Sequence record: FJ539132.1
DNA length: 4,241 bases
Source of the DNA: Qubevirus faecium
Reading direction: 5' to 3' (one strand)
Positions 52 through 4,137 of this stretch are shown piece after piece. A program made the translations under genes and the position numbers. How positions within the stretch are numbered: the first letter of the stretch is position 1; each line of letters starts with the position of its first letter. A model generated the notes under the pieces. It had not been told where the DNA came from and made no database searches. It worked only from the letters and a program-made list of their open reading frames with translations.

Positions 52-1374
52 ATGCCAGCCCTACCAAGAGGTCTTCGCTTTGGTTCGAATGGCGAAATCT
101 TAAACGATTTCAACGAGCTCTGGTTTCCGGAGCTCGTCTCATCCGAATTGAACTTAGGAACCTATAACCTCACGGGTTACATTAGTAACCTGCCGGGATA
201 CGAAGTGAAGGAGCGCAATAAAGGCTCTCATGTGCTTCGAACACCGTACCGTAGTACCGTGCCAGTAAACCATCTTGGATACAGGCCGGTTACGACAGTA
301 GAGTATAATCCACTGGGAACTTTCATCCGCCTGGATGGGGATGTAAAGTTTTCCGGAGGCTTGGTTAGCGCGTCGCTTAGACTTGACAACTACGTTGTCG
401 GTCTGGCTTCGCAGGCCGGTTTCGATTACCAGTCGGTAATCGGACCAAGGTTCTCATCGCAATTCTCCGCGTTTAGTACCAAATATGGTACTTTGCTCGG
501 GGAAGGGAGAGAAACACTTAGTTATCTTCTCCTGCTGTTTCGCAGAGTACGTGAAGGGATCCGCGCCGTAAGGCGTGGAGATCTCAAGCGTCTCAGGAAT
601 CTGGTTAGGAGCTACGAACCGACGTCCGTGAATGGACGTCGACAAGCAGCCTCCTTTTCAGGGACCTATCGCGACGAACTTGCCAATGGCAAGTGGAAAG
701 ACAGTAGTGCGAGCGACCTGTGGCTCGAATTCCGTTATGGGTTGATGCCGTTGTTCTACGACATACAATCTTTAATGGAAGACTTCATGCGTGTTCATAA
801 GAAAATCGCAAAAATTCAGCGATTCTCGGCTGGGCACGGTAAGCTCGTTGAGGTGTCCGGGACTTTCTACCCGGATGTCCACTTCGGCCTTGAGGTCACC
901 GCAGTGTTGCAGCGGCGTCATCGTTGGGGTGTCATATACCAGGATACTGGTTCTTATGCCACTTTCGACAATGGTCGGCTGGTCCCGGTGAAGGACTGGC
1001 AGACAGCGGCGTTTGCACTCCTTAACCCGGCTGAAACTGCATGGGAATTAACACCCTACAGTTTCGTTGCGGATTGGTTTGTGAACGTTGGTGATATGCT
1101 CGAGCAGATCGGACAACTCTATCGGCACGTCGACGTTGTCGACGGCTTTGATAGAAAGGACGTGAAACTCCGTAGCGTATCCGTGCGCGTGATTGCGAAC
1201 GGTGCAACGAACACACAGTTTGTCCTAAGACGAGCTAGTTTGTTGCATAGTTTCTATTCGCGCGTACATACCGTTGCGTTTCCGCAAATTTCACCACAAC
1301 TCGATACTGAGGTACGTAGCGTTAAGCACGTTATCGACAGTATCGCCCTTCTAACTCAGCGTTTTAAACGCTAA
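52..1374 (+). CDS. A2: Maturation protein (A2 / A protein), the pilus-binding virion protein; in Qbeta-type phages it also acts as the lysis protein
   Basis: Seen: 440-codon ORF, ATG at 52 with SD upstream, TAA stop at 1372-1374, first gene of the genome. Recalled: N-terminus MPALPRGLRFGSNGEILNDFNELWFPEL and internal blocks (FSAFS.KYGT, RAV.RGDL, LWLEFRYGLMPLFYDI, AWELTPYSFV.DWF.NVGDML, VVDGFDR.D, HV.DSI.LLTQR.KR) match Qbeta A2. Lysis function is inference from the Qbeta paradigm. Confidence 0.93.
   Translation: MPALPRGLRFGSNGEILNDFNELWFPELVSSELNLGTYNLTGYISNLPGYEVKERNKGSHVLRTPYRSTVPVNHLGYRPVTTVEYNPLGTFIRLDGDVKFSGGLVSASLRLDNYVVGLASQAGFDYQSVIGPRFSSQFSAFSTKYGTLLGEGRETLSYLLLLFRRVREGIRAVRRGDLKRLRNLVRSYEPTSVNGRRQAASFSGTYRDELANGKWKDSSASDLWLEFRYGLMPLFYDIQSLMEDFMRVHKKIAKIQRFSAGHGKLVEVSGTFYPDVHFGLEVTAVLQRRHRWGVIYQDTGSYATFDNGRLVPVKDWQTAAFALLNPAETAWELTPYSFVADWFVNVGDMLEQIGQLYRHVDVVDGFDRKDVKLRSVSVRVIANGATNTQFVLRRASLLHSFYSRVHTVAFPQISPQLDTEVRSVKHVIDSIALLTQRFKR
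1358..1372 (+). other. Small hairpin at the 3' end of the maturation gene (stem 1358-1363 / 1367-1372, loop UUA), overlapping the stop codon
   Basis: Seen: AGCGTT (1358-1363) pairs with AACGCT (1367-1372) around a 3-nt loop; UAA stop at 1372-1374. Function not determined from sequence. Confidence 0.4.
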
Positions 1375-1394
1375 ATCTTTGGGTCAATTTGATC

Positions 1395-1793
1395 ATGGCA
1401 AAATTAAATCAGGTAACACTTACCAAATTAGGTAAGGCGGGCGATCAGACTTTAACTCTTACTCCACGTGGGGTAAATCCCACTAACGGAGTGGCGTCGC
1501 TGTCCGAAGCTGGTGCTGTACCGGCTCTCGAGAAGCGAGTAACTGTGTCAGTTGCTCAGCCATCCCGTAACCGTAAGAACTATAAAGTTCAGATTAAGCT
1601 CCAAAACCCGACTGCATGCACGAAGGACGCATGTGACCCATCTGTGACGCGTTCCGCGTTCGCGGACCTAACGCTTTCGTTCACGTCGTATTCTACTGAC
1701 GCTGAACGTGCGCTGATTCGCACTGAATTGGCGGCTCTGTTGCAAGATCCTCTGATTGTCGATGCAATCGATAATCTGAACCCTGCATACTGA
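1395..1793 (+). CDS. Major coat (capsid) protein, 132 aa, terminated by a leaky UGA
   Basis: Seen: ATG at 1395 (the track's 1389 start is an upstream in-frame TTG giving MIM...; ATG 1395 gives MAKLNQ...), TGA at 1791-1793, two cysteines in ACTKDACD. Recalled: near-identity to Qbeta coat across PRGVNPTNGVASLS, PALEKRVTVSV, QPSRNRKNYKVQ, CDPSVTR, and C-terminal DAID.LNPAY. Confidence 0.95.
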   Translation: MAKLNQVTLTKLGKAGDQTLTLTPRGVNPTNGVASLSEAGAVPALEKRVTVSVAQPSRNRKNYKVQIKLQNPTACTKDACDPSVTRSAFADLTLSFTSYSTDAERALIRTELAALLQDPLIVDAIDNLNPAY

Positions 1794-2387
1794 GCGGCGT
1801 TATTGGCAGCCTCGTCTAGCGGTGGGGATAACCCAAAGCCAGACGTTCCGGATCGTCCAGACGTCAAACCGCCAGGCGGAACGGGCAGCTATCGCTGTCC
1901 GTTTACCTGTTACCGCCTCGGTAATATCATCGAGGTAGGGCAAAACGGTTCTCCTGACATCTATGCCAGGGGAGACGAGGTCCAGGTTATGTTCGATTAT
2001 GCTCTCGAGGATTTCCTTGGGAACACCAATTGGCGTAACTGGGATCAGCGACTATCAAATTATGATATAGCTAATCGTCGTCGTTGCCGAGGCAATGGTT
2101 ACGTTGACCTGGACGCAACTGCGATGCAGACCGACAGCTTTGTGCTATCCGGTAAGTATCCAGTGCGGAAGGTCAAGTTTCCAGGTGCCTTTGGCGCCCT
2201 CAAGTATCTCCTTAACATAAAGGATGATGCCTGGGTGGACTTGTCCGAGGTAACGGCCTACCGTTCCTATGGAATGGTCATCGGTTTCTGGACGGACTCT
2301 AAGAGCCCGCAGCTGCCGAGTGACTTCACCCAATTTGACAGTACGAATTGTCCTGTTCAGACGGTGATCGTCATACCCTCACTTTAA
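1395..2387 (+). CDS. A1: Read-through minor capsid protein A1 (coat plus C-terminal extension, about 330 aa with UGA decoded as Trp)
   Basis: Seen: the coat frame and the 1803-2387 ORF are the same reading frame (1395 and 1803 are both 0 mod 3); the track's M at 1803 is a TTG inside the extension, not an independent start. Recalled: extension blocks match the Qbeta A1 read-through domain (KPD.P..PD..PPGGTG.Y.CPF, LGNT.WR.WD.RLS, CRGNGY.DLDAT, PGAFG, VIGFW.D, FDFT.FD.T.CP.Q.VIV.P). Confidence 0.85.
1791..1793 (+). promoter_or_regulatory. Leaky UGA stop codon: programmed translational read-through site between coat and the A1 extension
   Basis: Seen: TGA at 1791-1793 is followed by an in-frame open frame of 197 sense codons up to TAA 2385-2387. 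Established: Qbeta coat UGA is occasionally read as Trp to make A1. Confidence 0.85.
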
Positions 2388-2402: not shown

Positions 2403-2422
2403 TAGCATGTCTAAGACAGCTA
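2403..2422 (+). promoter_or_regulatory. Coat-protein translational operator hairpin covering the replicase start codon (8-bp stem, bulged A2407, 3-nt loop UAA 2412-2414)
   Basis: Seen: UAGC-A-UGUC (2403-2411) pairs with GACAGCUA (2415-2422); the unpaired bulge A is the A of the AUG at 2407-2409. Recalled: the Qbeta operator has the same 8-bp stem, bulged A and 3-nt loop, and coat dimers bind it to repress replicase translation. Confidence 0.75.
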
Positions 2423-4137
2423 GTCACAGAAAGAAAATTACTCACCTATTGAGTAAGGTCGACATCGACTTCGAAGACGACATCCATATGTCTATCGCCA
2501 ATGATCTTTTTAAGGCCTTTGGCGTTGCACCACTTACGTCAGCGGAGCAGTGTATCAACACTCCGTTCCCTGACACTTCGATGACTGCTGATGCATTTCG
2601 CATCGCGTATCTGCGGTCAGAGATCCTTAGTAAGTATAGTGCGCACCCTCTCGGTATTGATACCGAAGCAGTAGCTTGGGAGAAGTTCCTAGCTGCTGAA
2701 GAGGGCTGTAGACAAACGAACGAACGACTGTCGCAGGCTAAGTACCATGACAATTCCATTTTGTCATGGGGCGAGCGTGTTATCCACACTGCTCGTCGAA
2801 AAATACTTAAGCTTATAGGCGAGTCTGTTCCGCTCGGGGATGTGGCGCTGCGCTGCCGATTTTCTGGCGGCGCGACGACCTCGGTTAACCGTTTACACGG
2901 CCACCCGTCGTGGAAGCATGCCTGTCCGCAGGATGTTACCAAACGCGCATTCAAATACCTACAAGCGTATAAAATGGCTTGTGGTGACATCGTAGACTTA
3001 CGTGTCAATGAGGTGCGCACTTCGAATAAAGCAGTCACTGTTCCAAAGAACAGTAAGACCGATCGTTGCATTGCCATCGAACCCGGATGGAATATGTTTT
3101 TCCAACTGGGTGTCGGTGCGGTGCTACGCGATAGGTTGCGCCTTTGGGGGATTGACCTTAATGATCAATCCATCAATCAGCGCCTCGCACGCGATGCGTC
3201 ACAGCTTGACCATTTGGCCACTGTTGACTTATCCGCAGCAAGTGATTCAATCAGCCTTAAGCTGGTGGAGTTACTACTACCGCCTGACTGGTTTGGCGTC
3301 CTGACCGATCTCCGATCGGATCAGGGTATCCTACCTGATGGGCGTGCCGTTACCTACGAGAAAATATCCTCCATGGGTAATGGCTACACTTTCGAGCTTG
3401 AGTCGCTCATATTTGCAGCGATCGCTCGGAGTGTGTGCGAGTTACTGGATCTTGACCAATCAACTGTCAGCGTGTACGGAGATGATATAATCATCGATTC
3501 CCGTGCTGCTGCAACCCTTATGGATGTGTTCGAGTACGTTGGGTTCACCCCTAACAGAAAGAAGACCTTTGTAAGTGGTCCCTTTAGAGAGTCGTGCGGA
3601 AAGCACTGGCACTCTGGGGTTGATGTAACGCCTTTTTACATACGCCGCCCAATACGTTGCCTAGTCGACATGATACTTGTTCTGAATAGTATCTATCGGT
3701 GGGGCACGATTGACGGCGTATGGGATCCTAGGGTGCTGCCCGTATACCAGAAGTACGTGAATATGCTGCCGAGAAATTGGCGGCGTAACACGATACCTGA
3801 TGGTTACGGAGACGGCGCTCTCGTCGGATTGGCTACAACGAATCCGTTTGTTATAGTCAAGAATTTCTCGAGACTATACCCGGTATTAGTTGAAGTCCAG
3901 AAGGACGTCAAGCGTCACGAGTACGGCAGTTATTTATATGCCATGCTACGCGACCGCGAGACACGTTACAATCCCTTCCTGCGTGTCGCAGATGGGACTG
4001 GGTTTGATGAAGCACCGCTAGCTACTAGCCTTCGTCGCAAGACAGGTCGGTACAAAGTGGCGTGGATTCAGGACAGTGCCTTCATCCGGCCCCCGTATTT
4101 TCTTACGGGACTTCCCGAGGTGAAGCTTGCTAGCTAG
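2407..4137 (+). CDS. RNA-dependent RNA polymerase, replicase beta subunit (576 aa)
   Basis: Seen: ATG 2407 with SD, TAG stop at 4135-4137; palm motifs in frame: motif A TVDLSAASDSI (3220-3252), motif B SSMGNGYTFELESLIF (3367-3414), motif C YGDD (3475-3486). Recalled: N-terminus MSKTAS and many blocks (GIDTEAVAWEKFLAAE, CRFSGGATT, NKAVTVPKNSKTDRCIAIEPGWNMFFQLG, YEKISSMGNGYTFELESLIFA, FRESCGKH, TIDGVWDPR, IPDGYGDGALVG) match Qbeta replicase. Confidence 0.96.
   Translation: MSKTASHRKKITHLLSKVDIDFEDDIHMSIANDLFKAFGVAPLTSAEQCINTPFPDTSMTADAFRIAYLRSEILSKYSAHPLGIDTEAVAWEKFLAAEEGCRQTNERLSQAKYHDNSILSWGERVIHTARRKILKLIGESVPLGDVALRCRFSGGATTSVNRLHGHPSWKHACPQDVTKRAFKYLQAYKMACGDIVDLRVNEVRTSNKAVTVPKNSKTDRCIAIEPGWNMFFQLGVGAVLRDRLRLWGIDLNDQSINQRLARDASQLDHLATVDLSAASDSISLKLVELLLPPDWFGVLTDLRSDQGILPDGRAVTYEKISSMGNGYTFELESLIFAAIARSVCELLDLDQSTVSVYGDDIIIDSRAAATLMDVFEYVGFTPNRKKTFVSGPFRESCGKHWHSGVDVTPFYIRRPIRCLVDMILVLNSIYRWGTIDGVWDPRVLPVYQKYVNMLPRNWRRNTIPDGYGDGALVGLATTNPFVIVKNFSRLYPVLVEVQKDVKRHEYGSYLYAMLRDRETRYNPFLRVADGTGFDEAPLATSLRRKTGRYKVAWIQDSAFIRPPYFLTGLPEVKLAS
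3475..3486 (+). other. RdRp catalytic motif C (YGDD) within the replicase
   Basis: Seen: TAC GGA GAT GAT in the replicase frame (codon offset 356 from ATG 2407). Established: YGDD is the catalytic motif of levivirus replicases. Confidence 0.9.

Follow-up and report, generated by a model that had tools for sequence, protein, structure and literature searches.

Coat initiation region and probable replicase S-site homolog at the A2-coat junction of FJ539132.1, a genogroup IV Qubevirus

Introduction

The question raised by the junction between the maturation/lysis gene (A2) and the coat gene of the phage genome FJ539132.1 is whether it holds a binding site for replicase and ribosomal protein S1 of the kind described in Qbeta and, if so, where that site begins and ends. 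The window analyzed was the whole record, 4,241 nucleotides (nt), which is a complete genome of a Qubevirus (formerly Allolevivirus) of genogroup IV. A preliminary description of this window had proposed such a site at 1237-1400, made up of a U-rich stretch, a small hairpin at the A2 stop codon, and a Qbeta-like segment at the coat start. We find that 1377-1406 is the coat initiation region and that it probably overlaps a Qbeta-type replicase/S1 repressor site, with 1298-1397 as the S-site homolog in a composite element. The classical coat ribosome site with its S-site is known and already annotated in phage SP; what is new is its occurrence in this genogroup IV strain.

The coat ribosome-binding site together with the S-site is the textbook translation-to-replication switch of the RNA phages. 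In Qbeta, whose coat AUG is at 1344, the S-site is given as nt 1247-1346 and a second internal replicase-binding site, the M-site, as 2545-2867 (PMC10610835). The mapping of the S-site is attributed to Meyer, Weber and Weissmann 1981 in PMC6071253 and PMC10610835, and Qbeta positions 1251-1312 have elsewhere been labelled A2/S-site (PMC7354602). S1 bound at the Qbeta S-site represses translation, hindering ribosome binding (PMC4678825), and S1 prefers single-stranded RNA that is rich in A/U or in pyrimidines (PMC7038950). The Qbeta coat initiation region was described as a weakly structured (-3.2 kcal/mol), strong ribosome site at which replicase binding represses the coat gene and activates A2 (Jayant, Priano and Mills 2010, PMC2978339).

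Results

The AUG at 1395 opens a conserved frame for a coat protein of 132 amino acids, which shares 76-94% identity with Qubevirus coats already known. The 30 nt at 1377-1406 were identical at 30 of 30 positions to the Qbeta sequence from -18 to +12 around the coat AUG. The preliminary description had recognized this Qbeta-like 30-mer and had set it one position too far upstream, at 1376-1405. Taking the 58% coding identity between FJ539132.1 and Qbeta, the chance of such a match is about 0.58^30 = 8e-8 per position by our own arithmetic. In an alignment of 17 complete genomes, seven from genogroup IV (FJ539132.1 included) and ten from genogroup III, 1377-1406 ranked first genome-wide among 30-nt windows, with a between-genogroup identity of 0.948 against a mean of 0.562. 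The A2-coat spacer was conserved between groups at 0.89, whereas the other noncoding regions, namely, the 5' untranslated region, the spacer between the read-through protein (A1) and replicase genes, and the 3' untranslated region, reached only 0.48-0.55. Among relatives the A2-coat spacer was 18-21 nt long, with every insertion or deletion at its 5' edge, ahead of the conserved block. On the coding side, codons 2-6 of the coat gene had a ratio of observed to expected synonymous differences of 0.45. When the initiation regions of the same genomes were compared, the between-genogroup identity was 0.95 for the coat gene but 0.56 for A2 and 0.66 for replicase, suggesting a constraint beyond ordinary ribosome-binding function. 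Constraint at the level of the sequence itself is confined to approximately 1375-1406.

The S-site homolog was located by alignment and occupies the same position as in Qbeta, directly 5' of the coat start codon and overlapping the AUG. Its placement relative to both the A2 stop and the coat AUG is the same, the 30 nt at its 3' end are identical, and the order of parts is shared: a hairpin, a G-less single-stranded tract, the stop-codon hairpin, and a weakly structured initiation site. It differs from the Qbeta site in that the 5' two-thirds have diverged, so that the junction matched Qbeta (~78% identity) only over 1322-1406, and in that replicase binding in FJ539132.1 is proposed by homology. 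A second correspondence was found in SP, which belongs to the same genogroup as FJ539132.1. In the SP record X07489, whose coat AUG is at 1427, nt 1331-1443 are annotated as "replicase binding region s," and this feature aligned end to end with FJ539132.1 1298-1411 at ~85% identity, 1298-1397 being its 5' part. At the end of A2, the UAA stop and AGCGUU/AACGCU hairpin of FJ539132.1 are replaced in SP by UGA and CAACGC/GCGUUG. Compared with the Qbeta coat ribosome-binding site (PMC2978339), no difference was detectable within the block, and the role expected of both is that of the dominant initiation site; the weak hairpin was published at -3.2 kcal/mol, versus -2.9 to -3.0 kcal/mol in the present folds. 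The idea of a Qbeta-type replicase/S1 site at this junction is therefore upheld by the S-site homology and the SP annotation, but not by the synonymous suppression within A2 or the U-rich stretch that had also been invoked for it. Of the extent first proposed (1237-1400), 1298-1397 is covered by S-site homology, and the bounds are revised to approximately 1298-1408, leaving out the U-rich part upstream. By analogy with Qbeta, the replicase of FJ539132.1 would bind 1298-1397 and repress coat translation. The coordinates of these and the other features are collected in Table 1.

Table 1. Features of the A2-coat junction and genes of FJ539132.1
Feature	Position	Strand	Remarks
Invariant coat translation-initiation block, CUUUGGGUCAAUUUGAUCAUGGCAAAAUUA (CTTTGGGTCAATTTGATCATGGCAAAATTA)	1377-1406	+	-18 to +12 of AUG
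Strictly invariant core	1379-1405	+	Except variable positions 1389, 1390, and 1400
A2-coat spacer, 20 nt	1375-1394	+	Between-group identity 0.89
Weak Shine-Dalgarno-like GGGU	1381-1384	+	10 nt before AUG
Small weak hairpin, GGUCA-AUU-UGAUC	1382-1394	+	-2.9 kcal/mol; holds the Shine-Dalgarno-like bases and abuts the AUG
Alternative weak AUG-loop hairpin (uncertain)	1388-1408	+	UUUGAU (1388-1393) with AUUAAA (1403-1408), AUG in loop; alignment-based and local folds
Homolog of Qbeta replicase S-site (Qbeta 1247-1346)	1298-1397	+	By alignment; -97 to +2 of coat AUG
Hairpin A	1302-1345	+	Closed by GAUAC (1303-1307) with GUAUC (1340-1344); predicted folds
Tip of hairpin A	1318-1331	+	Corresponds to Qbeta stem-loop 15 (1267-1280), "CP-sandwiched"
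G-less pyrimidine-rich tract, CCCUUCUAACUCA	1346-1358	+	Predicted single-stranded
Stop-codon hairpin, AGCGUU-UUA-AACGCU	1358-1372	+	U1372 opens the A2 stop codon
U-rich stretch in A2, codons S-L-L-H-S-F-Y-S	1237-1260	+	Inclusion in the element not supported
Maturation/lysis gene A2	52-1374	+	UAA stop at 1372-1374
Coat gene	1395-1793	+	AUG at 1395-1397
UGA read-through protein A1	1395-2387	+	Coat extended to 2387
Replicase gene	2407-4137	+	

For the structure of the junction, accessibility was taken as the unpaired probability in local-window folds of the 17 genomes, and full-length minimum-energy folds were computed for four genomes (FJ539132.1, Qbeta, SP, and M11). The block (-18 to +11) was predicted to be highly single-stranded, in the 93rd to 100th percentile in 17/17 genomes. 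The initiation region was low in structure, with a local minimum of -2.9 kcal/mol and no helix stable across genomes, and the four full-length folds differed on the pairing partners of the block. The small hairpin GGUCA-AUU-UGAUC folded at -2.9 kcal/mol in FJ539132.1 and -3.0 kcal/mol in Qbeta. The optimal duplex with the 3' end of 16S rRNA, at GGGU, was worth only -3.1 kcal/mol, a weak interaction consistent with an S1-dependent site. In the AUG-loop hairpin, a switch of the pair 1390-1406 (U-A to C-G) occurred twice, once in FI and once in HB-P24 plus NL95. For most genomes the pairing probability of this hairpin was close to zero, and the distant lineages described below do not conserve it, so that its reality is uncertain. 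A helix joining ACYCA (1354-1358) to UGGGU (1380-1384), suggested by the alignment fold, is unlikely; it had no two-sided changes, its pairing probability was low and erratic, and it was broken in two distant lineages (L033 and L037). An in-frame UUG at 1389-1391, two codons ahead of the coat AUG, leads a mechanical list of open reading frames to begin the coat frame at 1389. This codon is UUC or UUA in several relatives and is thus not a conserved alternative start.

Upstream of the block, the four full-length folds shared hairpin A, an unpaired tract at 1346-1358, and the stop-codon hairpin. In the alignment, two pairs of hairpin A were changed on both sides, and 98% of its cells were paired. 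The tract was among the longest G-less runs in each of the 17 genomes. Over the corresponding positions (-52 to -38), the pyrimidine fraction was 0.60-0.80 in 17/17 genomes, with FJ539132.1 at 0.80 (99th percentile), and the unpaired probability was in the 86th to 100th percentile in all of them. Across 20 lineages, third-position G occurred 6 times in the six codons of the tract, compared with 18.4 expected from each lineage's own codon usage. The tract is the most likely candidate for an S1 contact in the element. Upstream of the ribosome site, then, the constraint is structural and compositional, residing in the hairpin and the G-poor tract, and is not sequence specific.

The small hairpin that the preliminary description had noted ahead of the coat gene was confirmed at 1358-1372; it was predicted in both the local and the full-length folds and showed compensatory changes. 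Its stem consists of A1358-U1372, G1359-C1371, C1360-G1370, G1361-C1369, U1362-A1368, and U1363-A1367, closed by the loop UUA, and it was predicted in 24/24 lineages folded. Wobble positions were tabulated in 24 sequences ending in Q-R-x-K-R-stop. The pair formed by the wobble bases of the Gln and the last Arg was A-U in 13, G-C in 10, and mismatched in 1, whereas only about 12 concordant pairs are expected under independence (our own arithmetic from the counts). The pair formed by the wobble bases of the first Arg and the Lys was C-G in 17 sequences and changed to U-A in three separate lineages, and even when only the named phages are counted, the pairs of this hairpin switched independently at least three times. 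Because the covarying positions are synonymous, selection here acts on the RNA structure. The homologous Qbeta stem-loop 16 corresponds to FJ539132.1 1359-1371, and the hairpin has been kept in evolution; the Qbeta form has 6 base pairs and a GUAAA loop, compared with the 6-base-pair stem and UUA loop found here. As the A2 stop is UAA in FJ539132.1 rather than the UGA of Qbeta, the outer C-G pair has been lost.

Synonymous variation was assessed by codon-aware counts of observed and expected differences, with each region ranked against all windows of the same size in the genome. For the A2-coding part of the proposed site (1237-1374) the ratio was 0.93, in the 36th percentile, which is normal, and the suppression predicted there was not found. 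Conservation beyond coding need, as claimed for the whole region, thus holds for approximately 1375-1406 and, within the hairpin, for those wobble positions that are paired, but not for 1237-1374 as a whole.

Sampling was then widened with a coat-protein search that returned 26 clusters, with identity down to 56%, for 12 of which contigs were obtained; these distant lineages came from Logan and ENA contigs by a protein-based route, plus three metagenome/IMG contigs. Nucleotide scans of IMG/VR and of one metagenome collection had yielded just four contigs of use. L024 (MAVO01000019.1, 1-1790) and L034 kept 29/30 of the block and L039 kept 27 nt, and the coats of these lineages begin MAKL. The A2 and A1 sequences of L024 and L034 were ~60% identical at the nucleotide level to both genogroups III and IV, and their coat sequences were 70-76% identical; the two represent a third deep Qubevirus lineage. 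Other coat N termini were accompanied by other initiation regions, giving MAKL, MSKM, and MQMK types. The MSKM type reads UUUGAGUC-YUA-GACU-AUG, and the MQMK type has GYGCC-loop-GGCRG followed by the AUG. Where the small hairpin abutting the AUG could be recognized, its arms, GGUC/GAUC, were replaced by AGUC/GACU in L033, L036, and L037 and by GAUC/GAUC in L032, changes that are compensatory or compatible.

Two further features were seen in these lineages. In L025 to L031 (coat MQMKQITL) the A2-coat spacer is longer, at 27-33 nt, and contains a hairpin, GUGCC-loop-GGCAG, ~15-30 nt ahead of the coat AUG, with a compensatory variant, GAGCC/GGCUG, in L031; the Shine-Dalgarno sequence in these lineages is stronger, of the GAGG/AGGA type. 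In L033 (826-834) and L037, A2 is five codons longer (..KRPAL), and its UGA stop lies inside CUUUGAGUC, which corresponds to CUUUGGGUC of FJ539132.1. The end of A2, at the hairpin or within the initiation region of the coat gene, is decided by a single G/A difference.

Discussion

In the explanation that we favor, 1377-1406 is the coat initiation region and the main ribosome entry site on the plus strand. With its weak Shine-Dalgarno sequence, A/U-rich composition, and near lack of structure, recruitment of ribosomes here should depend on S1 binding single-stranded RNA. Upstream, the G-poor tract and the stop-codon hairpin form the S-site homolog together with the block. A single S1-friendly surface would then serve 30S subunits first and, at a later stage of infection, the replicase holoenzyme, which would bind by way of its S1 subunit. 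In competing with ribosomes, the holoenzyme would turn coat translation off, clear the template for minus-strand synthesis, and relieve the inhibition of A2, as in Qbeta. Such double use, along with a fixed coat N terminus, offers the best explanation at hand for an invariance that the coat initiation region shows and the other two lack.

Several results weigh against the proposal of a replicase/S1 repressor site. Within A2, the S-site homolog (1298-1374) had a synonymous ratio of 0.94, in the 40th percentile, which is normal, while the homolog of the Qbeta/SP M-site at 2594-2921 was clearly suppressed, at 0.82 over 108 codons (lowest 0.4%), with minima at 2623-2667, 2737-2781, and 2881-2925. 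The Qbeta U-tract UCUUUUUAUUAA is GCCCUUCUAA in FJ539132.1, so any contact with S1 would have to be compositional rather than sequence specific. The coat initiation regions of the distant lineages are quite different, which makes the invariant block lineage specific and not universal. Finally, the stop-codon hairpin may have been kept for contact with coat protein in the virion and not for replicase binding.

This last point leads to the explanation that competes best with a replicase/S1 site, namely, that the stop-codon hairpin and the tip of hairpin A are kept mainly for coat-dimer binding in assembly. We regard this as possible but doubtful. In the model of the Qbeta virion RNA (Chang et al. 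2022, PMC8880383, Tables S1-S2), stem-loop 16 (1308-1320) is classed as "operator-like," meaning a coat-dimer contact that resembles the translational operator, and stem-loop 15 (1267-1280) as "CP-sandwiched"; these are the homologs of 1359-1371 and 1318-1331, and a further one, stem-loop 17 (1363-1375), is found shortly after the start of the coat gene (PMC8880383). Consistent with a role in assembly, the stop-codon hairpin covaries in all lineages regardless of the type of initiation region. However, 59 of the 77 stem-loops in the Qbeta model are near capsid proteins (PMC8880383), so the coat contact of stem-loops 15 and 16 is not specific, and packaging leaves the invariant initiation block and the G-poor tract unexplained. 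Packaging contacts are also compatible with a replicase/S1 site and do not exclude it.

It is less probable that the junction is a ribosome site only, with no use as a replicase repressor, and that the invariance reflects finely tuned, S1-dependent initiation at a weak Shine-Dalgarno sequence together with the fixed N terminus (Ala-Lys-Leu). The span of the block, -18 to +12, is close in size and position to a ribosome-protected initiation fragment and does not fit the S-site extent of -97 to +2; elsewhere in the S-site homolog, synonymous sites vary freely, and the type of initiation region changes along with the coat N terminus (MAKL, MSKM, or MQMK). Initiation alone, however, does not force invariance, as the A2 and replicase initiation regions show, and repression by replicase has been established experimentally in Qbeta at exactly this sequence, which the block matches without a mismatch.

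The distant lineages also allow a different division of the junction, to which we give a similarly low probability. The deeply conserved module of Qubevirus-like phages would then be, instead of the ribosome site, the G-poor tract plus the stop-codon hairpin, present in nearly all lineages examined and possibly the true docking site for S1/replicase or a standby site for ribosomes. The downstream initiation regions fall into discrete types, each invariant within itself, and the 30-nt block would be a lineage-specific cassette co-adapted to the replicase of each lineage.

The U-rich stretch at 1237-1260, which the preliminary description had included in the site, is very unlikely to be an S1 landing pad of the replicase site that begins downstream of it. 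Its composition is as described: it contains 50% U compared with 25% for the genome, a level reached by only 0.24% of 24-nt windows in two clusters (the other is at 516-542), and the homologous stretch is 38-50% U in 17/17 genomes of genogroups III and IV. As a component of the site, it could not be sustained. The synonymous ratio was 1.24 (1.56 between groups), and predicted accessibility was in the 19th percentile in FJ539132.1 and inconsistent in the other genomes. A distance of 38-61 nt separates the stretch from the S-site homolog downstream, and neither the S-site as mapped in Qbeta nor the feature annotated in SP includes it. In most of the distant lineages the homologous codons fall to 19-38% U and track the encoded amino acids (L, F, Y, and S), and U-richness was therefore rejected as a conserved signal.

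There is very little chance that the block is invariant because it pairs over a long range with the read-through part of A1: 1373-1408 is complementary to a conserved A1 stretch at ~2083-2113 encoding R-C-R-G-N-G-Y-V-D-L-D (-23.6 kcal/mol, the top duplex partner in the genome, recurring at -17 to -23.6 kcal/mol in 16/17 genomes, with a single apparent compensatory change, in MX1), but in 10-17% of trials a shuffled block found a partner just as good, synonymous variation in the A1 stretch was normal (ratio 1.02), and the helix was absent from 4/4 full-length minimum-energy folds and would hide a site of known accessibility, so it was rejected.

With a replicase/S1 repressor site overlapping the coat initiation region as the favored explanation, the element is now bounded in this strain by the S-site homolog and its invariant core, and the U-rich stretch can be dropped. 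The structural and compositional constraint upstream indicates where footprinting or recoding should look. The stakes are low, this being a classical element already annotated in SP.

Other observations

The termini of FJ539132.1 are 5' GGGG and 3' CCCA. Its closest match in the phage collection was FI strain HB-P24, at 83.4% identity; NL95, SP, and FI were 79-83% identical to it, and genomes of the Qbeta group gave only patchy matches of ~70%. In a neighbor-joining tree it fell within genogroup IV as the sister of HB-P24 plus NL95. Judged by this position and by the identity to its nearest match, FJ539132.1 represents an undescribed genogroup IV lineage. No Rfam family was matched anywhere in its 4,241 nt (E <= 1).

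Three other regions with low synonymous variation were noted. The first is a block at 1261-1302, where the ratio was 0.66, and 0.33 within genogroup IV. In that genogroup the segment 1258-1300 hardly varies (97% identity, synonymous ratio 0.33), a conservation that genogroup III does not share; the segment contains a small hairpin, UUGCG-UUUC-CGCAA, at 1274-1287. An overlapping reading frame was rejected as its cause; the sole candidate was a 26-codon frame starting with TTG (1274-1354), and this start is TCG in FI. Nowhere in the genome were synonymous changes more strongly suppressed than at 2428-2463 (0.48), just inside the replicase gene and beside the operator hairpin that binds coat protein where this gene begins. 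From 1809 onward, just past the leaky UGA of the coat gene, the ratio was 0.55, a suppression that may reflect the read-through context.

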